Below, one piece after another: positions 8,541-56,535 of a stretch of DNA of 64,000 bases (position 1 is its first letter; the number at the start of each line of letters is the position of its first letter). The stretch comes from Raillietiella orientalis. Taxonomy: Eukaryota. The notes beneath the pieces were generated by a model. The model saw only the letters and a program-made list of their open reading frames with translations, was not told the DNA's origin and did not search any database. The translations under genes were made by a program, and so were the position numbers. Where the stretch lies: NCBI GenBank assembly GCA_036172245.1, contig JAYWIR010000015.1, positions 124,001 through 188,000 on the forward strand. Direction: 5' to 3'.

Positions 8541-9150
8541 TCGGGGCTGGGTTTCGAGTCTGCTCAGCAGGATGACGCTGGTTGGCCAATAGGCTCCGGG
8601 TGCGGCATTGCTGTATGTCAGAAACTCCCAGATGCCCCCGTTGACCGGTGGGGATTAGAAGTTCCAGGAACTTTCCAGGAATCCAGGAACTCAGGGCTTG
8701 GTTCGGGGTTCCTGGATTCTCTTCGGGGTTCCCCTCCGGTCGCGAAAATGAAGCCGTCCTCCCCTTCGTGGTGAGACCCTTCATCACCTTCCATGGAGCT
8801 GGTTGGTAGCTCTCCAGAGTGGAAGAAGAGCGCTGCTCCCTCTGGGAAGCGCCCTTCAGAGAAATCCGGAAGCGTCCTTTCAAGGTTTTCCTTCAGGTTA
8901 GGAAAACCAGGAGCGGTTCCCTTGCGGATTCCATGCCCTTTGGAGCAGAAATTCCAGGAGCAGATCCTTTCCGGGTTTACCCCTCCAAAGAGAATTAGAA
9001 GGTATCCTTGGGGATCTCCCACCAAGCACAAGCGGAACGGAGAACTTCCTCTGGAATCTTCCTGGATTCATAGGGTGGTCCTCCCAGGGTGTACTTCCTA
9101 ACTTGACGAGTTGTACGCACCCTCGGGTGGCGCGAAACGGTGTTAAGGGA
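8541..9150 (+). mobile_element. SINE-like family A, long form, 5'-truncated copy
   Basis: Collinear with 21215-21960 and 25105-25820. Shares the CAGGA.G..GCTGGTTGGCC core and 3' CACCCTCGGGTGGCG (9118-9132). No A/B boxes remain. Confidence 0.75.
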
Positions 9151-14700: not shown

Positions 14701-17700
14701 CCTGTTTCCAGGCACTACAGTCCGTGGGCGAAATAACAACTTAAATCTCCTCGTGGGCGAGCAGATTTTAGTTGCGGCCCTGCGCCATGGCAACCATCTG
14801 TCGAAGCTGATACCCGCATCGGGGCAGTTTTCGGTGGCTGCAGAAAAGAAAGGATATTAGCTTCTCCGAGCTGGCTGCTTGCTTAACCAGGACCCGAGTG
14901 GAGACGCACCGATGGGCTCATCCCAAACTTCGGAGTTAGGGCTAATCTTCGGAATGGAGCTGACGCTCCATCCTTTCCAGCTTCAGGATGCCGAGGTCGG
15001 CATCCCAATTCGGGCCTTCAAACGGGTCACGATCGTTGGGTCGGACACGAGTCTCGTGCAAGGTCACTGACAGTTAGAAATCCTCATCTACGAGCACCCA
15101 TGAGAAGAGCCGGTCAGCTTACGTAGGAGGAGCATCGGCTCTTCCTAGATGTGTGATGCGTAACATGGATGCACTTAGAAAGCTCAAGGATCGAGACCTG
15201 CGGAAGAATTCCTTTGAGCGCTTCTTCAGCAAATCGCACTCCAGGAAATGAGCTCTTGGAGCTCATTTCCTGGAGTTTTTCAACAGAATTGGAAGACGCA
15301 CTGCAAGGAATCGTCTTCTGTGCCCTGGGAAACCAACCGTGCCAAACTTCAGTCTTGCATCAAATTTCCCACTGTATCGAACACTCGTTTAAGTCAATTC
15401 CTCTTATTCGTCCAAAGGTCTCTTGCCGGGTCCATGGTGGTGCCGGCCACCAACATGGATCCTGAGGGGTCAGCTCCGGAAGTTGCGTCTGCCGCCGTGT
15501 TCGCCTCAGGAATCGGAAAGCTTAGTCACCAGAGGCGGTCCCTCAAACACTTCTGATGAGTCGGCAGCAGAACTCATCGAGAGCAACCACCTCGAGGGTA
15601 TCGAGACGGTCGGTACCCTTCTCGGCTGCTGTTAAATGGCGGCAATGTTCTCTGAGTTCTACCGGCCTGCCCAAACAACCGCACTGTAGAGTTTTCCTCG
15701 GTCTCCCCTTCGTGCTAACACACAACCCGGACAGCAACGAGGGGATTCTGCCTTCGCGAAACGAAAGCGGCTCGTAGGCATTTTCGCGAGTCTCATGGCT
15801 CTTCATCCGAGAGGAGTTCGCTCTTGAGGGTGCCACCTGTTCCGTCCAGCAACATGTGAAATTCATCGAGTAGTGAGTCGAGGGATAGAAAGCTTCCTGT
15901 AGTGTTTGCGGAGGAGCGTGAAATTCGAGACTTCAGTCTTGCCTTTGGGAATGAGCTCGTTGACCCGAGCCACCAACGCGCTATGCCTGCACTGTGCTTG
16001 AGGGTTGGATTTCACTTTTATTCTCAGTTCGTGGACGAAATGCGAACGCCTTCGGGTCGATAATTCTTCCCGCCTGTCGATCATCTAGCAAAGTGCAAGA
16101 AGAAGAAGGGAACACAAGCGGCTGGCATCGTGACGCAGTGTTGTGAGTGTCATTCAATCACAAACACCAACTCGCATGATTATTTCCGCAGCAGCATCCC
16201 ATATGGTTTGGAAGGAACGCTTTGCACTTGGAGCCTTCCTTGAATGCTTCCACGACCTCTCACTGCCTGAAACAAGGATGAATTTGGCATGGGTCTGAAA
16301 CAGCAGCTGTCATTGACACTGTTTCCAGCGCACACTCGACTCAGTCCAGCGCCAGTCTACCGCTCCCTAAATCTAAAATCCAAGGAGCTGTTGCAGAAGA
16401 CGTGCGATCGCATCAGGGAACAGACAGAAGTTTTGCAAAATTTTCGCGGAAAGATCCGGTGCTTCCAGTTATCACGAAGGTCAATGAAGAGTGTCGATAA
16501 CGCTCTCGAATAAGGACGTGCTCGTACTGCCTTGCTAGACAAGTGTACGTACATCAGTGCGTGCACCCATCCTTCCAATTTATTTTCCTTCCAGGAACAA
16601 CTTGCACGTTGAATTGCTGTTCAACCCTTTCTATTCCGACCCGTTCCTCCGTGTTATGGAATTCTTCCCTTATGCTTCAGCCGGCTTTAGTTCCAAACAT
16701 CACTGCTGCACAAAAGCTATCCTTCCTCGCATGCTGCGTGAGCAGCAAAACGGAAGATTTTGCATTTGAAAGCAACTTGGTCACTGGAACGGAAGGACAG
16801 CAATCGAAAAGGCTGAATGCTCTTCGTAAAATCGTGCAGCTATATGTGGGCGGGATCCGACTGTACTCTTCGAAAAATTCTCTGTTTCTCCCTTTCATCA
16901 GACAGGGGACAAAACAAACCTGAGAACAAGCCTCCTCCGGGGATGGGGCGCATGGAATCTCAAAAAGATGCAATGAGAAATTTTCTTCTGAGAGCATAGG
17001 ACGTGGTGCTCAGAACCGAACGTAGGGATTTCCGAGTGCTAAAAAGCATCGCGAAAGTCGCACCCGTTGTTCACGTCTTTTTCCTTCTTATTTATTAGCC
17101 TTTCACCTTCCCTTTCTTTCCTTGGGGAGCGGTAAAATTTTCGAACGTTTTCTGGAACTCGTGTTTGAGGAAACTGGAGATTTCCTGTAAAATCCTTTTC
17201 AATCTGCAGGGAGCAATGTAATTTAGATATACTTTCAAGAGTACGAAAGATTGCTTTCCAGATCTTTGTCTTTTTTTTCTTTTTTTTTCCTTCCTTGCTG
17301 ATAAAAATTTAGTTAATAAATAATTGCAGCAGTTGCTTTAGAGACACAAATGAGCATAAGTTGGACTTCCCGAATTTCTTACAGAAGCAAATTGCTGGAA
17401 GTCCTTCAAGACGTTTCTACTGATGACTGTTTGTTGAACCAATCCTTGGGACCGGTTTTCGGCCAATCGTGTGAGTTTTTGCGCATTTTGTAGGTGATGC
17501 TCATTGTGGGCACCACGGGAAGCATCTAAACACTTTGTCAGTTCCTTTCCAGCTTAATCTTGGATTATGGAATCGTCCTCGGTGAGAATGCCAGCACGAA
17601 GGTCTAAGCCAGCGATACTCAGTCTACGACCCGAGGGCCGCATGCTGCCCACCAAGCTTCCATGTGCGGCCCATGTCATTCACAGCCATCAAGTATTTTT

Positions 17701-19102: not shown

Positions 19103-19330
19103 ACCCTTCAATTCCATGTGGCCTCATCATAGGTAAAGGGTAGCCTTTCGTGGCTTCCCGTCCGAACGGCGACCCTGACAACTCCCCGAAGGATTCTGAG
19201 CAGCCCTCCCGTGCTCCCGGTGTCACCCTCGCAAGAGTTTCCCGGGATGACCGCCTGCCAGCCAGACAAACAGCCTTCCTCTCGCCCACACGATTTCTTC
19301 CTGCGGATCGTCAACGCCCGTCGGAGGAAG
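19103..19330 (+). repeat. Repeat family B fragment (third copy)
   Basis: Aligns to 20172-20399 and, inverted, to ~33985-34215. ORF track shows shared ASRPNGDPDNS.KDSEQPSRAPGVTL. Confidence 0.9.
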
Positions 19331-20035
19331 GAGGAATGAAGAAACAGGAAAACTCATCCCCGATCAGCGTCTTGTCGTCGTTTTACCGCTGAACCGTCCT
19401 CTTGGATCGAAGCAACGAATGCATAGATCAGCAGTGCACGAATGCCCCTGCGATTGCATCTGCGTAATGCATGATGTCCGTCTTCATCTTTAGGTCCATC
19501 CATGCCTAACGCAAGGTGCCTTCTCCTGCAAGGCATCTTGAAGAATCCTTCTGAACGGCTTCTCTTTCCACAAAGCCGAGCTGTGAAAACAAGGATTTCG
19601 AGGAATAACCAGGAGAAACTTTGCGATTAGCGACGAGAAGTCTCCGAGTCCTCATGCGTAAAAGAGAAAGAAATCAGACAAGCAGACGAGGGAAACATTT
19701 TTTTTTTTTTCTTTTATCTCAGGCGAAGGACTCAAATCCCAAAACGAGTGTTTCGTACAAGCAAGTCTACAAAAATGCTCCTCAGATAAGATGAATTCAG
19801 ACGTTTACGAGGGCATTCCGGAAAGAAACAATAGAAGTATACTTCTCGTCCAGGAATTTGTCTGACTAAACGGTAAACCGATAGCCATTCCCCAGCTCAT
19901 GAGACCCGAAAGAATGAAATTAGCGGCACGCCATCAGCTGATAGCCAGGGCCCGAGTTTAGAGTTGAATTCCACGGGAGGCTGAAGAATTGCCGTTTGCT
20001 TTCAAACAAATTGGAACGGAGCGTCTTCAAATGCC

Positions 20036-20459
20036 CGAGACAAGTCCTCAAACGAGGAGCGTTCCCGAATTTTATCCCCGAGGCTGCAAATGAGCAGTGC
20101 AGTCGAGTCAGCACAGCTCTTCTCCCTTCTTCAATCAGAGTCGGAAAACACCATCACCACCACCAACAAATCCCTTCAATTCCATGTTGCCTCATCACAG
20201 GTCAAGGGCAGCCTTTCGTGGCTTCCCGTCCGAACGGCGACCCTGACAACTCCTTGAAGGATTCTGAGCAGCCCTCCCGTGCTCCCGGTGTCACCCTCTC
20301 GAGCGCTTCCCGGGTTGACCGCCAGCCAGCCAGCAAGCGACCTTCCTCTCGCCCACACGATTTTTTCCTGCGGGTCGTCAACGCCCGTCTGAGGAAGGAG
20401 AGAAGAGTCATGAGGTCATCAGTCCCCTTCGACCGCGCGACACGGAAGCTGCAGGAGGC
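20036..20459 (+). repeat. Repeat family B, copy 1 (older, diverged part of duplicated module)
   Basis: Reverse complement of 33927-34349 aligns end to end, with frequent substitutions. Confidence 0.9.
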
Positions 20460-20471
20460 ATCGGGAGCGAG

Positions 20472-21177
20472 CTGTCTCAACGAAGGCTCTCGCGCCCTAC
20501 CCAAGCGAGCGGGAAACAGCAGCGGCTCGCAAGCCGCCGAACGGAAGGAGGAGACAGTTCCGTGCAGGCGTGTCCGAGACGAGGTCAGCCTCGGGCAAGC
20601 GGCAGCTGTCAGTGCCGCTGCTCTCTCGAACGCTTCCGTGCTTGTGCCGAGTCGCAGCAGGTCAACATGACCACGGCCGGTGGCCGCCCGGCGGACGAAG
20701 GCTCAGCAACGAGCCGGAGACCGCTTCCGGTTGCGGAGCCGGCGCTGCGTGGGGCTGCACGGAGTGCCGGCGGGGCGAGAGGAGCGAAGCCGGGAGCGAG
20801 GGTCCCCAGCAGCAAGCGTCCGGCAGCAAACTCGAAGAGGCCCCACGCAGCGTTCCTGCCCGCCCGTCGGCACGGGGGACACCAGCGCCCCCTCGACGCA
20901 CTGCGCTGCGCTTCGCCGGGCCTGCCTTGGCGACGGACGCACAGCGGCCCGCAGGATCAACGGCGTGGAGCCTCCTGCTGTCACCTCCTAAGGTGCGCCC
21001 CGCGTGCTGCTCGGATTGACGGCTCCTCCTGCCGCGCGTCGGACGAAGGAGGGGAGCGGCTGCCGTGCGCGGCGCCAGGGTCCCGACGGTCGCATCCTTC
21101 CTGAGCCCGCTGCACGATCGCGGGGCCGTCCGTCCGCCGCGCCTTCGACAGTGCATTCGATCCGCCTGGCTGCAGGG
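20472..21177 (+). repeat. GC-rich ~700 bp repeat, near-identical inverted copy of 31611-32316
   Basis: ORFs 20562..21104(+) and 31684..32226(-) give 180-aa translations differing at one residue. The 103, 93 and 68 aa ORF pairs are identical. Confidence 0.97.
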
Positions 21178-21214
21178 ACAGCGGACTCTCGTCGGTGCGC
21201 TGCTGACCGTACCC

Positions 21215-21960
21215 ACCGTTGGCGGCTGAGTGGCTGCGGACTCCGAGCGTGGCACCGAGCGTCGCGGGTTCGAATCCCCAAGTGGAGAATTGATGACGAG
21301 AATGGGGGGTGCGTCGTGGGTTTCGAGTCTCTCCCTCAGGACGGTGCTGGTTGGCCTTGGAGGCTTCAGGTATGGCACCGGAGGAAGCCGAATGCCCCAT
21401 TGAGTCGTTGGGGTTGAAAGTTGACTTTCCGGGTTCCTTTCAGGAGCCGGTTCCCTTCGGGGCTCCCCTTCGGTTGCGAAAAGGGAGTTTTCCTCCCCCT
21501 CTATGAAGGGGGGGGGGGACCCTCCATCACTTTCCGTGGAGCTCCATGGACCTCTCCAATGAGGAAGGAAGAAGCGCTCTGCTCCCTTCGGGGGAGGGGG
21601 GAACGCCCTCCAGAGAAACTTGGAAGCGTCCTTTCGGGATTCTCTCCAGAGAAGGAAACAAGGAGCGGTTCTTCCTTTGAGGGTTCCATTCCCCGGGGGA
21701 AGAAATTCCAGGAGCAGATACTTTCTGCGTTCACTCTTCCGGAGACAATTAGGAAGAGGCTCCTTGGAGATTCTTCACCAAGCTCAAGAGGAACTCCTTC
21801 CTCCGGAACCCTTCCTGGAATCATAGGGTGACCTTTCCGGAGTTAACCTCTAACACACGCACCCTTGGGTGGAGTGGACATCGTCAAAGAGCTTCGTGAG
21901 CTCTTCCTGAGGAGGCGAACAGTTCTTTAGCACTTGGCGAGCTAAAAAGAAAGCCGAATA
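21215..21960 (+). mobile_element. tRNA-derived SINE-like family A, long form (~740 bp)
   Basis: A-box-like CGGCTGAGTGG at 21223-21233 and B box GGTTCGAATCC at 21267-21277, 33 nt apart. Body shared with other copies in the window. Confidence 0.75.
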
Positions 21961-25104: not shown

Positions 25105-25820
25105 ACGTGTGGCTACGGCCTCCGCACGTGGCAACAAACGTTGAGGGTTCGAATCCCCACGCGAAGGATCGACGCAAAAGAAATGGGTGCGTCGTGGGTC
25201 TCTAGGCTCCCCCACAGGATGATGCTGGTTGGCCTGTAGGCTTCCGGTGAGGCACTGAAGGAAGCCAGAATCTCCCCGTCGACTGGCCAGGATCTGAAGT
25301 TGACCCTCTAGGGTCCTTCCAGGAATCAAGGAGCCGTTTCCTTTCGGAGTTTCCCTCAGGTTGTGGAGATGGAGCCGTACATGGAGATGGTTGATACTCC
25401 TCTCAGGAGGTTGCCTCTCCAGAGTGTAAGAAGCACGCTGCTCCCTCCGGGGAGCGTCCTTCAAAGAAGTTTGGAAGCGTCCCTTCGGGATTTTCTTCAG
25501 AGGAATAACAAGGAGCGGATCCTTTCCGGGTTCCCTTCGCAGAAGAAATGAGGGCTGACCCCGGAGGTGGTCAGTCCTCATTTCCTCCGGGGGACCCCTC
25601 TGAGAAGGATAAGGAATAGGCTTCCTTTGGGGTTCTTTAACAAGCGTAAGAGGAACGGAACTCTTCATCCGGAGCTCTACTGGATTTGTATGGTGGTCCC
25701 TCCGGGAGTCGTCCCCTAACTTGAAGAGTTTCTCGCACCCTCGGGTGGCGTGGACAGTGTTAAAGGGTTTCGTGAGTCCTAGGTGAAAGGTTCTTGAGTA
25801 CTTCGCAAACCAAAAAGAAC
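25105..25820 (+). mobile_element. tRNA-derived SINE-like family A, long form
   Basis: B box GGTTCGAATCC at 25146-25156, GGGTGCGTCGTGGG core and 3' CACCCTCGGGTGGCG at 25736-25750. Confidence 0.75.
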
Positions 25821-29600: not shown

Positions 29601-29654
29601 CTGGGCTGGTGCTAAGATACATGGTTGCATGGTCCTAAGCGAAGAATTGAAGGG

Positions 29655-29885
29655 AAGGGACTCCTTTATTCCTGGAAGGAACCCGGAAGATCAACTTTCA
29701 ATCCTGGCGACTCGACAGGAGCATCCGGCTTCCGCCGGTGCCACATCTGAAGCCTCCAAGGCCAACCAGCACCGTCCTGAGAGAGAGACTCGAAACCCAC
29801 GACGCACCCCCCATTCTCGTCGTCAATTCTTCACTTGGGGATTCGAACCCGTGACGCTCGGTGCCACGCGTGGAGATCGCATCCA
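29655..29885 (-). mobile_element. SINE-like family A, head and core only
   Basis: B box on the minus strand at 29839-29849. Very similar to 21250-21450 (shared EASKANQHRPE.ETRNPRRTPHSR translation in ORF track). Confidence 0.85.
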
Positions 29886-30609
29886 CGTGCCCCCAAGCGC
29901 GGACGTGGTTACGGTCTGTGCGCGCTCTTCGGGCTTACCAGTTACCACCTCTCTGATCACCTGCCAAGTGAGAGAGAGAGAGAGTGATCGCTAAAATGAA
30001 GAATGAAGAAGAGCGACGTCGTCTCTCCAGAGGGCCGCCATGCCCTCAGCGAAAGTGGGACGAAGGTGTGGCACCAATGTGTTTTGCTGTAGACAGTTGC
30101 TCCCGCCTGCTCCTATCTTTGGACCCGTTCCTTGGAGGATATTTCCTCTCCAGTCTGCTAAAGGGAGTCAGCAGCAAAGTCTTAGCACCATTTTTTCACA
30201 AGGACGCATAGATGACATCTCAGGGAAAGCATCAAGGAAATTCGAGCGGTTAACTAGCAACAGCAAGAGTGCAAGAAGCTCCAGAAGACAAGCAACCAGT
30301 CGAACAAAGGTTCTCTGGTCCTTCGCGAGCGAAGAGTTCCACCTGCAAACTAGAGAAGTCACTGCCACCAAGGACCTGGGTTCCGCCTACTGCACGCTCC
30401 AGCTAGCACTGGTAGGCACAAAGAAGCCTCATTCGCAACTAACCCGACAGAGGGAAAGCTACGTCCTGCGTAGAGCTGCATCGCGCGTCCTCCTCCTTCC
30501 CATTTCCCGGGGGAAACCTACGGTTTTCGGAACAGCTGAGCTCATCATCGTTGTCGCTGTACTCAGCCCGCCAGGTGAGGATTAAACGTGCCTGGCCCGC
30601 GGACATGGT

Positions 30610-30637
30610 GGGCGTGGGGCGACACTGCCCCACGCCC
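30610..30637. other. Perfect GC hairpin (11-bp stem, 6-nt loop)
   Basis: GGGCGTGGGGC-GACACT-GCCCCACGCCC, near the edge of the GC-rich segment. Confidence 0.9.
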
Positions 30638-31610
30638 GGAGGCGTTTCACTCCCTTCTTACCGTGCGCTCAATGTCGCAAGGGGACGAAGCTCTAGGAAG
30701 ACGGGAAGCTACGCCCGTCTAGAGGACTGCAAACGCCCGACGACGACTGGCCGCCGCCTGATTCCGCAAAGAAGAGCTCCAGCCACCGCTGTTTCTGGAT
30801 GCCCAGTGACAAGAATGGATTCGGGGTCGACAAGAAGAGAGGAAGGCTACGCGCAGCGGCGTCTCTCTCTCCTCATATCTTCCTCGAGTGCGCGCTATCC
30901 TCGCGGGATGGAAGCCTTGGGCCGGACAGGCCCCGACTCCACACCAGTCGCTCCGAACGTGCAATGGCACCTGGCAGGGCGGATCGCTCATCCACTGGGC
31001 GCAGAGACGGACCCGCGCTTCGGGCGACATGCAGATCAGCTGTCCGTCCGGAGACGAGGCCAGCCGGATGGTTGCAGGGGCTGCTCGCGACGCGACCCCA
31101 GTGCGTCAACCTGGTCACCCGGAAGGCGAAGGCGTAGGTCCCAAGCGTGGAGGACACCTAGCCCGAGGCGGAAGGGCCGAGGCGCGACAGGAAATTCTTG
31201 GAATCGGGGCGGAGCTCTCTGCAGCGCTTCTCTGCCGGAATGCCGAGTGCTCCCCGGGCGGAGCAAGGCAGCGCCGGGGAGCACACCGTCCTTCGCAGAT
31301 ACAGCGAGTTCACAGGAAAGAGGCGGGGCAGAAGGGAGGCATGCTGTGTGTCCCGCGTGTGCTTACAGGTTACGGCACGCGGACGCCGGCGGCTCACGGA
31401 GCTGGAAGCGAAAAGACAACAGACCGTGGATAGCCGCTGGCGCCGCTCGGCAATCCGTAGCCAGGGATAACGAGATAGCCGCTCTGCTCCCTTTCCATGG
31501 TCCGTCGCGCCTTCTCCATGGCGACGTCGACGATGACGACTACTCTGACCCCGGCTACCCATCGCCAACAGTGTCCACTGACAAGCTGAAGAATCGGTGC
31601 ACACAACAGC

Positions 31611-32316
31611 CCCTGCAGCCAGGCGGATCGAATGCACTGTCGAAGGCGCGGCGGACGGACGGCCCCGCGATCGTGCAGCGGGCTCAGGAAGGATGCGACC
31701 GTCGGGACCCTGGCGCCGCGCACGGCAGCCGCTCCCCTCCTTCGTCCGACGCGCGGCAGGAGGAGCCGTCAATCCGAGCAGCACGCGGGGCGCACCTTAG
31801 GAGGTGACAGCAGGAGGCTCCACGCCGTTGATCCTGCGGGCCGCTGTGCGTCCGTCGCCGAGGCAGGCCCGGCGAAGCGCAGCGCAGTGCGTCGAGGGGG
31901 CGCTGGTGTCCCCCGTGCCGACGGGCGGGCAGGAACGCTGCGTGGGGCCTCTTCGAGTTTGCTGCCGGACGCTTGCTGCTGGGGACCCTCGCTCCCGGCT
32001 TCGCTCCTCTCGCCCCGCCGGCACTCCGTGCAGCCCCACGCAGCGCCGGCTCCGCAACCGGAAGCGGTCTCCGGCTCGTTGCTGAGCCTTCGTCCGCCGG
32101 GCGGCCACCGGCCGTGGTCATGTTGACCTGCTGCGACTCGGCACAAGCACGGAAGCGTTCGAGAGAGCAGCGGCACTGACAGCTGCCGCTTGCCCGAGGC
32201 TGACCTCGTCTCGGACACGCCTGCACGGAACTGTCTCCTCCTTCCGTTCGGCGGCGTGCGAGCCGCTGTTGTTTCCCGCTCGCTTGGGTAGGGCGCGAGA
32301 GCCTTCGTCGAGGCAG
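31611..32316 (-). repeat. GC-rich ~700 bp repeat, inverted copy of 20472-21177; left flank of the viral insert
   Basis: Direct alignment shows only a handful of differences. Confidence 0.97.
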
Positions 32317-32317
32317 G

Positions 32318-32496
32318 TCCCTCTGACTGAAAGGGTAGGGGGCATGAGATGCCCTTGGCTAGATACAGATGATGCGAATGAGATGTCTGTGGCTGTACAT
32401 GGTATATCTGCATACCTTTTGCGTCATGTCGCAGGTTTCGAATCGCGGGCATCTTGGTGGATTAGTGGGGGCAATCAGTCCAGTGGACAACGTTGA
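32318..32496 (+). pseudogene. cap: Putative capsid protein C-terminal fragment
   Basis: RCPWLDTDDANEMSVAVHGISAYL...QSSGQR* resembles the PWxDT...HxG(L/I)...FxGxR* ending of circo-like capsids. It is convergent with rep and followed by AATAAA at 32553-32558. Judged by eye only. Confidence 0.5.
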
Positions 32497-32628
32497 AAGA
32501 TGAGTCTGTGTAGTGTGTGCCCATATTCTATTCTATATTTAAAGGAATACGAAATAAAGATTTTTCAACATTTTGTTTATCAACTCCGTCGAAAGAGGAG
32601 GTTCTTGTTATTTGTTTTCTGTGTTGGG

Positions 32629-33581
32629 TTATGCTACCGTCTTGATCGATGGAGTATGAAGTCTTTTCCTGGCTGCATCGTTGATGGGGAAGATCTTCCA
32701 TCTGTCTATGGAGAGTTTTGTATAGTCTGGATCCCAGTTGGCGTACACTATGGCGCACGGCGTGTCTTGATGGACCCCTGGTATTTGGGGTCGAAGATTA
32801 TTCCGTTTTTCATGGATTCTATAGATCCATATTGCACAGAGTCCTTGTTGTCTCTTGTAAAATCCACGACAACTATGTACCCGCCGTTGTAAATATGTGC
32901 CGCGTCTGCTTTTTTACAACTCTGCATGTATGTGGCGTTGCGGCGGACGCAGAGGTATTTCGCTATCGTCATCCTCTCGCTGTTCCCTTGCTGATCTGAA
33001 TACCATATAATGCTGCGGAGGATTGTCTTAGGATATCGAGAACTTGAATTTGCCATTGACGTAGCCTCAATCCTATTAATGGGTCTTGTATTCTGGATGC
33101 TCTTTGGAATTGTATACATTCTTTGACGAAGTTGGAGGTTACGTGCATAGAATCTGGTGTGGTTTCCCAGAATCTATTTCTCTTGCACTTCCTTGTTTGA
33201 TTAAGCTGGAATCACTGTTTATCGGTTAATAAAAAAACATGTTACCTTGGTTTCATATGTTTCTCCTGTGTGATCTGATGTGCATCCGAATGCCCAAGGT
33301 GTTTGATCTTGCTTGTTGCAATATTGTATGTTGGAGATTGCTGTTCCTTTGGGGCTTTCTAAGTGAGCTCTTGCAAATCGAATGGTTTTTAGTTGAAGCA
33401 GGGTTTTGGCGTGATGCTGCTGAAAGTATCCTTGAAGGCGTGGCGTACTGAAGTCTCCTGTATCTTTGCCAATGATGGCGAAGGTTGCTTCAGTTCTTAG
33501 CCACTTTTTGATGTGTTGATATTCTACATCTGTGTAATTGTTGAGAGTAAAGCACCAATTATTCTTTTTAGAGTAAGGCAT
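32629..33581 (-). pseudogene. rep: CRESS-virus replication-associated protein (HUH endonuclease + SF3 helicase), frameshifted
   Basis: Endonuclease: motif I FTLNN (33551-33537), motif II PRLQG (PHLQG with CAC>CGC), AHLE..KG and motif III YCNK (33323-33312). Helicase: LRQWQ, Walker A remnant RSIIWYSDQQGNSERMT (G at 32987), Walker B IVVVDFTR (32876-32853) and YGSIESMKNGIIFDPKY. After a frameshift come motif C IVYAN (32751-32737), Arg-finger LSIDRW and a stop at 32631-32629. Confidence 0.95.
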
Positions 33582-33627
33582 CTTGGTAACACCGAGATAG
33601 TGAGATGGTCGTTATCCATGAACCTTG

Positions 33628-33636
33628 TTATATATA
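33628..33636 (-). promoter_or_regulatory. Putative TATA box of rep
   Basis: TATATATAA on the minus strand, between the origin and the rep ATG (33581), ~47 nt upstream. Confidence 0.6.
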
Positions 33637-33646
33637 CTCTCCGAGA

Positions 33647-33670
33647 CGGCTGGTTAATATTAACCAGCCG
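33647..33670. other. Rolling-circle origin stem-loop (24-bp perfect palindrome)
   Basis: CGGCTGGTTAATATTAACCAGCCG. The core TAATATTAAC is one base from the canonical TAATATTAC nonanucleotide and sits just upstream of rep. Confidence 0.85.
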
Positions 33671-33926
33671 CCGAGGTGTCAAAGTTCTTCGACCTTGAAA
33701 GATAAGAAGGGTGTCGTTATCCTTCTCGGATGACCGTAGTACGCAGTAAGTGGTGCGAAGAGGGGTTATGGTGATCATGTTTTGTGCACGTAAGAGGGGA
33801 TCACGTGTGGAAAGGGATATCAAAATGGTGGTAAGTGGAAATGTCGTCAGTAGGCACTAGATTGTACCGATGGCCGGAGGCTACGGTGGGTGGCTCTATG
33901 AAAAGAAAGGGAACATAAGAGGCAGG

Positions 33927-34349
33927 CTTCCTGCAGCTCCCGTGTCGCGCGGTCGAAGGAGGCCGCTGACTGCATGACTCTTCTGTCCTTCCTCCGACGG
34001 GCGTTGACGACCCGCAGCAACAAATCGCGTGGGCGAGATGAAGGCTGCTTGTCTGGATGGCTGGCGGTCACCCCGGGAAGCTCCTGTGAGGATGACACCA
34101 GGAGCACGGAAGGACTGCCCAGCATCCTCCGGGGAGTTTTCAGCGTCGCCGTTCGGACGGGAAGCCGCGAAAGGCTGCGCTTAACCTGTGATGAGGCCAC
34201 ATGAAATTGAAGGGATTTGTTGTTGGTGGTGATGGTGTTTTCCGACTCTGACTGAAGAAGGAGAAGAGCTGTGCTGACTCCACTGCGCTGCTGGCTTGCA
34301 GCCTCGGGAATAAAACTCGGAAACGCCCCTCATTTAAGTAATTGTCTCG
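33927..34349 (-). repeat. Repeat family B, copy 2 (inverted); right flank of the viral insert
   Basis: Aligns to 20036-20459 in reverse complement. Confidence 0.9.
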
Positions 34350-55319: not shown

Positions 55320-55870
55320 ATGGCTTCATTTCGGCTCGCTGAGTACCCGAGAACAGTAGTCTAGGGGCTCGTGACGCTCTTTAAGACGATCCACGCCACC
55401 CGAGGGTGCGTGCAACTCTTCAGGTTATAGGGGATAACCCCAGAAGGACCACACTGTGAGTCTAGGAAGGCTCCAGAAGGAGTCTGTTCCTCTTGCGCTT
55501 GGTAGAGAATCCTCAAGGAAACCTCTTCCTTATTCTCTTAAGAGGGACCCCCGTAGGGGGTTACTCTTTGCTTCTTCTCCGCTTGTTTCCTTCTCTGAAG
55601 AGAACCCTGAAGGGACGCTTCCAAATTCCTTCGAAAGGCGTTCCCCGAAGGAAGCAGCGCGCTTCTTTGCACTCTCAAGGAGTATGGATTCACCATCTCG
55701 ATGGTACGCGATGAAGGGTCCCCCTCCGAGGGTTGGTGGGAATGGCTGCGCTTTCACAACCGGAAGAGAGCTCCGAAGAACTCCGGCTCCTTGATTCGGA
55801 GTCAACTCCCAATTCCGGCCACTCGACGGGGGCTTCCACCAGTGTCGCACCCTGCTGGCCTGCGTGCCAG
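55320..55870 (-). mobile_element. SINE-like family A, long-form body
   Basis: Inverted CACCCTCGGGTGGCG at 55394-55408. Body collinear with 25260-25820. Confidence 0.75.
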
Positions 55871-56244: not shown

Positions 56245-56535
56245 GCTGGCCTGCGTGCCAGTTTCCTAAAGATTCCTTCTCTTATTTATAAGTACGAGAA
56301 GGCTCCAGAGGAAACGTCCTGCCACAGACGTGCATGTTTATTTTTTTTATAAATAAACGCCCCGGCGTGACCAGTGGCGCACCCTAATAGGCCAACCAGC
56401 GCCACCCTGTGAGGGGAACTCGAAGCCAGCGACGCACCCATTTCTCTCGGAGTCGATCCTCCAGGTAGGGATTGGAACTCGCAACGTTCGGTACCGCGAG
56501 CGGAGGACGCACCCCCGCAGCCGCCGGCGTGGGCG
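56245..56535 (-). mobile_element. SINE-like family A head + core + A-rich module
   Basis: Degenerate B box AGTTCCAATCC (56479-56469), GAAATGGGTGCGTCG and GCTGGTTGGCC core, then GGGCGTTTATTTATAAAAAAAATAAA. Confidence 0.75.

Follow-up and report, generated by a model that had tools for sequence, protein, structure and literature searches.

In a stretch of 64,000 nucleotides (nt) of the Raillietiella orientalis genome (assembly GCA_036172245.1, contig JAYWIR010000015.1, positions 124,001 to 188,000 of the forward strand), here called the window and numbered from its first letter, the minus strand carries a disrupted gene for the replication protein (Rep) of the CRESS (circular, Rep-encoding, single-stranded) DNA viruses. 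The gene lies in a 1602-nt block that interrupts a repeat of the host, and an origin-like hairpin and a TATA-like box are located upstream of it within the same block. The element is very probably an endogenous viral element (EVE), i.e., a decayed piece of a CRESS-DNA virus in host DNA. The coordinates of the features are collected in Table 1.

Results

The rep gene and its relatives

A full-length CRESS-DNA virus Rep is encoded on the minus strand from 33581 to 32629, spread over several reading frames. The translated piece 33611-33219 matched the Pfam family Viral_Rep (PF02407) with an E-value of 1.3e-11 (score 45 bits, cut-off 26), and the match spanned positions 3-81 of the 82-position profile (79/82). 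The assignment to the CRESS Reps made in the initial annotation was thereby borne out. The endonuclease domain is formed by the first 112 residues from the ATG at 33581. This piece matched Rep nuclease domains in the PDB with E-values from 3.6e-9 to 2.4e-8, and a word-based search gave five metagenomic Reps of 270-329 amino acids (aa), encoded on contigs of 2-3 kb, with 35-43% identity. The weakest PDB matches were 2hwt and 6h8o, with E-values of about 0.005 as compared with about 1e-8 to 1e-9 for the best ones. We take these two to be the nanovirus Rep nuclease domain, and the stronger matches to be circovirus Reps.

The downstream piece, 33173-32748, had no Pfam match of its own and no PDB match at E≤1. 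A word-based protein search with this piece gave no match among three candidates. In the exhaustive HMMER search against a set of 1.84 billion representative proteins, 1212 proteins were retrieved at E≤1e-3, of which 140 reached E≤1e-10. An Atlas search with the helicase piece gave leads only, with scores of at most 0.83. The lowest E-value of the HMMER search was 6.2e-22, the identities were 33-50%, and the matched part was always residues 53-137. Among the top matches that were scanned, Viral_Rep was listed in 19 of 22 (one of them under the curated cut-off) and RNA_helicase in 13 of 22, and therefore, the downstream piece is the superfamily 3 (SF3) helicase of a Rep. The protein with the best match, P0006 (354 aa), has two tandem Rep helicase domains and no endonuclease domain, and it has the look of a Rep derivative from another genome that is rearranged or endogenous.

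A profile made from 111 full-length relatives mapped colinearly onto the element across three frames. Profile positions 23-135 and 212-304 share one frame (199.5 bits), positions 153-211 fall in a second frame with a match of 7-8 bits (when the whole window was searched, E 0.03-0.05), and positions 302-346 fall in a third frame (29 bits, E 1.6e-10). The element was the sole Rep-like locus detected in the window by the family profile, and it also gave the sole Pfam match there. A tblastn search of the 64 kb with P0005, a metagenomic Rep of 329 aa, pointed to a second Rep fragment at 24021-23926 on the minus strand (E 0.005, motif II-III region). This candidate was missed by the family profile at E≤1 and was taken as a chance match.

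The same Rep architecture and helicase type were found in 79 CRESS genomes of IMG/VR (L001-L079, the nearest being L014, L032, L005, L016 and L028). The helicase pattern common to the element and these relatives is IIWY.D..GN.GKT…AHAYNG..IVVFDF.R…NY..IE..KNG..FS.KY…ANF.PD..KLS.DRW, which we take to be that of the nanovirus-type Rep. The nearest sequences are 40-48% identical to the element per domain. None above 42% identity was found among the metagenome contigs, none of the IMG/VR sequences was picked out as a close relative by peptide patterns from the N-terminal piece, and no match to bacterial plasmids was obtained by tblastn of both domains. Because the best identities are only 44-48% per domain, the lineage of the source virus is unsampled at close range, in agreement with the earlier suggestion of a possibly undescribed virus.

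Decay of the rep gene

The rep gene does not form a single uninterrupted or spliced frame, as at least two frame changes are present, one from the linker to the helicase and one from the helicase to the C-terminal part. The initial annotation had stated that all motifs of the rolling-circle replication endonuclease and of the SF3 helicase can be reconstructed from 32629-33581 of the minus strand. A Rep over three frames was indeed obtained, but the His of motif II and the Gly-Lys of Walker A are replaced.

Among the 38 columns that are conserved at 90% or more in 20 relatives, 32 are kept by the element. The His of motif II and both the Gly and the Lys of Walker A are among the six that are not. 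Motif I (FTxNN) and motif III (YxxK) are present, with T17, N20, Y95 and K98 kept. In motif II, an Arg codon (33440-33438) occupies the position of the His that is found in all of the 20 aligned relatives and, when the motif matches of the relatives were counted, in 116 of 125. We read this mismatch as the decay of a member of the CRESS Reps and not as non-membership. P0005, which is otherwise intact, likewise has Arg in place of this His (TPRLQGF), and this is either a tolerated variant or a sign that P0005 itself is a defective copy. In Walker A, G229 and K230 are replaced by Glu-Arg. Gly-Lys is present at this site in 20/20 aligned relatives, and 174 of 178 relatives were counted as having GK. 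Elsewhere the helicase core is kept, with D267, N311, S320, D322 and R323 (the Walker B Asp, the motif C Asn and the residues of the C-terminal S.DR); P314 is kept as well. The sequence LRLRQWQ in the linker matches W202 and Q203, which are present in 18/20 and 20/20 relatives, respectively.

Two frame changes, the replaced His of motif II and the lost Gly-Lys of Walker A mean that the gene is dead. It is a pseudogene, in which both catalytic centres are spoiled and most of the other conserved positions are kept.

A candidate intron in rep

Between the endonuclease frame and the linker frame lies a 40-nt candidate intron, 33245-33206, with a GC content of 30%, a run of seven T and stops in all three frames. 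It opens with GT after a whole codon of the endonuclease frame and closes with AG before a whole codon of the linker frame. Outside this segment, about 300 codons in the frames supported by the profile contain no in-frame stop. If the segment was not an intron, at least one stop-gain plus one frameshift would be required. The frame is also broken in the same linker in three of the 79 relatives (L035, L068 and L070), which contain GT..AG candidates of 31-77 nt, and taking these out restores the conserved GKR.DL block. From these sequence comparisons we lean towards a retained intron in the element, with some reserve.

Hairpin, TATA-like box and direct repeats upstream of rep

The region upstream of rep contains a perfect palindrome of 24 nt, which gave a z value of -4.15 when it was folded as DNA, and none of 200 shuffles folded as well. 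The centre of the palindrome, TAATATTAA, agrees with 8 of the 9 positions of TAATATTAC / NANTATTAC, of which TAATATTAC is the canonical nonanucleotide. The mismatch is at the last base, and the loop is self-complementary. Taken by itself, the palindrome is not exceptional, as four sites with perfect arms of at least 10 nt exist in the window and 2 of 20 block shuffles reach arms of at least 12. The bare palindrome is not unique in the window; its significance rests on its position and on its centre. A TATA-like box lies between the palindrome and the ATG of rep, and thus the origin-like palindrome and the TATA box that were noticed initially upstream of rep were both recovered.

Hairpins with a GC-rich stem and NAGTATTAC or ATTATTAC in a loop of 13-14 nt were found in 11 of the 15 nearest relatives. 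In the six relatives with hand-converted coordinates, the hairpin, with its GC-rich stem and AT-rich loop, is located upstream of rep, as in the element. The loop of 13-14 nt in the IMG/VR relatives contains NAGTATTAC, whereas the element has TAATATTAA inside a fully self-complementary 24-mer. The exact hairpin of 22 nt was not found in IMG/VR or in the metagenome contigs. The longest hairpin of the window is a different one, at 15238-15276 (perfect arms of 18 nt, 3-nt loop), and it is unrelated to the element.

The exact sequence GGATAACGAC occurs only twice in the 64 kb, in the same orientation, with one copy on either side of the hairpin. The two copies belong to a 23-nt repeat with 74% identity. 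When up to one mismatch was allowed, GGATAACGAC was not enriched in the window (5 copies against 2.04 expected; 7 of 100 shuffles reach 5). By their arrangement these repeats may be regarded as iteron-like, and the hairpin and the TATA-like box would be the putative origin and promoter.

Insertion of the element into a host repeat

By self-BLASTN of the window, 20036-20459 of the plus strand aligned with 34349-33926 of the minus strand with 87% identity over 425 nt, and 20465-21177 of the plus strand aligned with 32323-31611 of the minus strand with 99% identity over 713 nt. By this alignment, 32324-33925 is a clean insertion in a host repeat, with both junctions fixed to the base. These limits are nearly equal to 32310-33926, the limits given initially, and the view that the element is integrated in host DNA and not a chimeric join is supported by the paralogous copy of the flanks, which is uninterrupted exactly at the block. 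Viral sequence was thus found between host flanks together with an empty site, the latter through the paralogous site 20459/20465. The GC content was 0.35-0.49 inside the insert and 0.59-0.75 in the flanks.

The sequence CTGCCTC is present at the upstream junction and in the host flank just outside the downstream junction. As read from the sequence, this pair would fit either microhomology-guided joining or a short target duplication. Four of the seven mismatches in the flank with 99% identity are located within 15 nt of the junction.

The element was also detected in an independent-looking sequencing run, probably of DNA (run X1; 0.06 share of sampled words). Two contigs of 151-159 nt from this run lie within the element and are 100% identical to it at 32691-32833 and 33263-33413, and the former, a read-sized contig, covers the second frame change with no difference. 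There was no RNA run among the sequencing runs sharing words with the element.

DNA outside rep and the capsid gene

Of the insert, 649 nt lie outside rep (344 nt on its upstream side and 305 nt on its downstream side), and the insert is in this respect more than an isolated rep fragment, as had been proposed. Two further proposals, that of a capsid-like end and that of a near-unit viral genome, were not supported. A tblastx search of both flanking regions against 79 related contigs of IMG/VR and then against 76 related metagenome contigs (155 contigs) detected no capsid similarity, the best E-values being 0.21, 0.33, 0.032 and 0.42, and hidden Markov models (HMMs) of eight clusters of non-Rep open reading frames (ORFs) of the relatives gave no match inside the insert. 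One Arg-rich HMM match of 12.8 bits, at about 32343-32190, fell in the GC-rich host flank outside the insert and was taken as compositional. The negative result for the capsid is weak evidence, because CRESS capsids diverge fast and the contig collection seems to begin near 2 kb.

In 59 related contigs of at most 2600 nt, a biased set with a lower limit near 2 kb, the largest non-Rep ORF had a median length of 265 aa. A second ORF of at least 129 aa was present in 58 of these 59 contigs, and it was on the opposite strand in 42 of them. Because the non-Rep DNA of the insert is only 649 nt, there is no room in it for both an intergenic region and a capsid gene as large as in the relatives, and this size also speaks against a near-unit genome. 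The insert of 1602 nt is shorter than unit length as judged from the 79 relatives (minimum 2005 nt, median 2308 nt, in a biased collection that starts near 2 kb). A recognisable capsid gene convergent with rep, as in a circovirus-like ambisense layout, was not found in the insert.

Two putative plus-strand frames are located at the ends of the insert, one diverging from the hairpin and the other convergent with rep, and neither had similarity to any capsid in the same tblastx and HMM searches. The in-frame TAG of the diverging frame falls inside a possible 30-nt mini-intron, GTAAGT..CTAG, at 33831-33860. The two frames may be the remains of either end of a second gene that was severed when the viral circle was broken at integration. 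On the plus strand of the region that diverges from the hairpin there are two copies of GTAAGTGG, which is similar to a 5' splice site, at 33745-33754 and, 85 nt from the former, at 33830-33839.

Table 1. Features of the inserted element and of its paralogous empty site (window coordinates)
Feature	Position	Strand	Remarks
Inserted virus-derived block, 1602 nt	32324..33925	-	By self-BLASTN and junction alignment
Paralogous, inverted, uninterrupted flank copy (empty site)	20036..21177	+	Five bases, 20460-20464, opposite the 1602-nt block
CTGCCTC at the upstream junction	33919..33925	-	A single CTGTCTC in the empty site
CTGCCTC beside the downstream junction, in the host flank	32310..32316	-	By junction alignment
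Rep first part, HUH endonuclease domain	33246..33581	-	ATG 33581; motif I FTLNN, motif III YCNK, motif II PRLQGY
Candidate intron of 40 nt, GTAACA...TTCCAG	33206..33245	-	Predicted from the sequence
Rep linker, second frame	33021..33205	-	Ends LRLRQWQ; profile positions 153-211
First frame change, linker to helicase frame	33018..33049	-	W/Q at 33055-33050; R216 at 33017-33015 in another frame
Rep SF3 helicase core	32751..33029	-	Profile positions 212-304; Walker B VVVDF and downstream KNG..KY block present
Walker A site reading GNSERMT	32987-32967	-	GNxGKT in relatives
Second frame change, helicase to C-terminal frame	32758..32765	-	K299 at 32768-32766; PCAIVYAN block from 32760 in another frame
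Rep C-terminal part, third frame, IVYANWDPDYTKLSIDRWKIFPI	32629..32787	-	Stop TAA 32631-32629; profile positions 302-346
GGATAACGAC direct repeat, copy 1	33608..33617	-	Iteron-like
TATA-like box TATATATAA	33628..33636	-	47 nt upstream of Rep ATG, between hairpin and ATG; putative function
Origin-like perfect 24-nt palindrome CGGCTGGTTAAT/ATTAACCAGCCG	33647..33670		Starts 66 nt upstream of Rep ATG
GGATAACGAC direct repeat, copy 2	33713..33722	-	Iteron-like
Plus-strand ORF diverging from the hairpin	33768..33918	+	ATG 33768; one in-frame TAG; open to the junction; putative
Plus-strand frame convergent with rep	32324..32496	+	Open from the junction to TGA 32494-32496; AATAAA 32553-32558; putative

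The window around the element

The observed/expected ratio of CpG in the window was 0.68-0.98, and the GC content varied from 0.36 to 0.75. No match was obtained in the window by Rfam and tRNA scans, and no Pfam family was found in 231 ORFs of at least 90 aa outside the element. The window fits a gene-poor eukaryote region without the CpG depletion of vertebrate type. A large inverted segmental duplication, 19104-21951 / 29649-34349, is present, with a third partial copy at 19104-19333 (88-92% identity). In this duplication, besides the viral insert, 29887-31610, about 1.7 kb with 63-75% GC and ORFs open in several frames, stands opposite only 52 nt (21178-21229) in the other copy. A dispersed repeat family with 64-76% identity has at least five copies in the 64 kb (8717-9149, 21230-21951, 25109-25819, 29649-29887, 55367-55779 and 56389-56525). 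Its ORFs had no Pfam match, and the family is possibly an unclassified transposon or an element similar to a short interspersed nuclear element. For an ORF derived from a repeat, no usable match was obtained in an Atlas search.

Discussion

The genomes of plants, fungi, animals and protists are known to contain Rep-derived insertions of circular single-stranded DNA viruses. The piece of viral DNA described here carries a putative promoter region, an origin-like hairpin with iteron-like repeats and the whole of rep, which encoded an HUH endonuclease and a nanovirus-type SF3 helicase and probably contained the 40-nt intron. The circle of a capsid-bearing source virus would have been broken outside rep and the origin, and most or all of the capsid gene would therefore be missing. 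After integration, rep decayed by the two frame changes and by the changes in motif II and Walker A, and a working Rep can no longer be made from it.

In the survey of Liu et al. (2011; PMC3198968), the counts given for 35 species are 302 Rep-derived against 3 capsid protein-derived insertions, i.e., the former are common and the latter are rare. Endogenous Reps, as portrayed in that survey and in the accounts of Kinsella et al. (2020, 2022; PMC7493932, PMC9615429), resemble the element in the disrupted chromosomal gene for Viral_Rep plus helicase, in the lack of a recognisable capsid and in the record of a virus and its host. As compared with what is described in these sources, the present element adds an origin-like hairpin, a TATA box, a probable intron and an empty site on the same contig.

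Several observations weigh against the interpretation as an EVE, or against parts of it. The centre of the hairpin, TAATATTAA, is different from the NAGTATTAC of the relatives, and nick sites are not usually located in a loop that is self-complementary throughout. The two flanks are unequally similar to the paralog (99% and 87%), which may be explained by a gene conversion that halted at the insertion. The empty site is a paralog on the same contig and not an orthologous allele. Neither of the two contigs of run X1 reaches a junction, and no contig spanning a junction was found in this one run. The match of the linker frame to the family profile, at 7-8 bits, is weak. As compared with L068 and L070, the position of the candidate intron is shifted downstream by about 8 residues.

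The insert might alternatively be a complete replicon with Rep only, satellite-like or one component of a multipartite genome as in nanoviruses and alphasatellites, in which a capsid gene was never present. We consider this unlikely. The layout on one strand, hairpin - TATA - rep - A-rich tail, appears to resemble that of nanovirus DNA-R and of alphasatellites, and the helicase pattern likewise appears to be that of the Nanoviridae M-Rep and the alphasatellite Rep, with no match to the Rep helicase of porcine circovirus 2 in the PDB at E≤1. The tblastx and HMM searches detected no capsid similarity, and the plus-strand frames at the two ends would share one phase if these ends were joined (a 1-in-3 chance); jointly they are far too short for a capsid. 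On the other side, a second ORF is present in all but one of the 59 smaller related contigs, with the median length given above; the IMG/VR relatives, of at least 2.0 kb, nearly all have one, while the element has only its 649 nt outside rep. In addition, 1602 nt exceeds the 1.0-1.4 kb of such components, and no sign of a unit-length circle is seen at the ends of the insert.

It is very improbable that a contaminating free CRESS genome was wrongly joined into the host contig during assembly. CRESS viruses are frequent contaminants, the composition of the insert is unlike that of the flanks, and the junctions lie beyond both contigs of run X1. However, both flanks are colinear with adjacent bases of one paralog, at positions 20459 and 20465, which a false join would not yield, and for this reason an assembly chimera is strongly disfavoured. 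Two breaks and two lost catalytic sites are, moreover, unexpected for a replicating contaminant, and the block is not a full circle.

Replitrons, like the element, have a Y1 HUH Rep related to the CRESS Reps in a eukaryote chromosome; in the description by Craig (2023; PMC10288648), the Rep domain of their transposases is not fused to a helicase, short direct repeats are present at or near the termini, and they are multi-copy. A Rep-encoding transposon, replitron-like or of another HUH type, is scarcely credible as the source of the insert, even though the insertion lies inside a repeat and the 7-nt direct repeat at the junctions recalls those short terminal repeats, because the helicase missing from the replitron Rep as described excludes replitrons, the SF3 helicase of the element goes with a Rep 40-48% identical to the Reps of viral contigs of 2-2.5 kb, the element is single-copy in the window, and its Rep is a Y1 Rep with a Viral_Rep domain and not of the Helitron RepHel type.

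With the element regarded as an EVE, the candidate intron bears on how it arose. If a retained intron is real, the virus would have had a eukaryote as the place of its replication and would have been integrated at the DNA level, not via a spliced transcript (retroposition). A more specific proposal, which we put forward tentatively and hold to be doubtful as a whole, is that the source belonged to an unsampled CRESS lineage (at most 48% identity among the 1.84 billion representatives) with mini-introns, of 40 nt in rep and possibly of 30 nt in the divergent plus-strand ORF, and that it was integrated as DNA together with its origin. If this is true, the fossil would tie a CRESS lineage with mini-introns to a CpG-rich eukaryote in which introns of very small size are spliced, and the frames at the two ends would be the ends of the second gene.

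Hosts of orphan CRESS viruses have been assigned by means of endogenous Reps, as reported in the accounts of Kinsella et al. cited above (PMC7493932, PMC9615429), and Rep fossils are among the few direct links between orphan metagenomic CRESS-DNA viruses and their hosts. The value of the locus depends on copies in relatives, and alone it would be one more case of a well-documented phenomenon. As such a case it is unusually informative, with a full-length rep, the origin region, a probable intron, and both junctions resolved to the base by an internal copy of the empty site.

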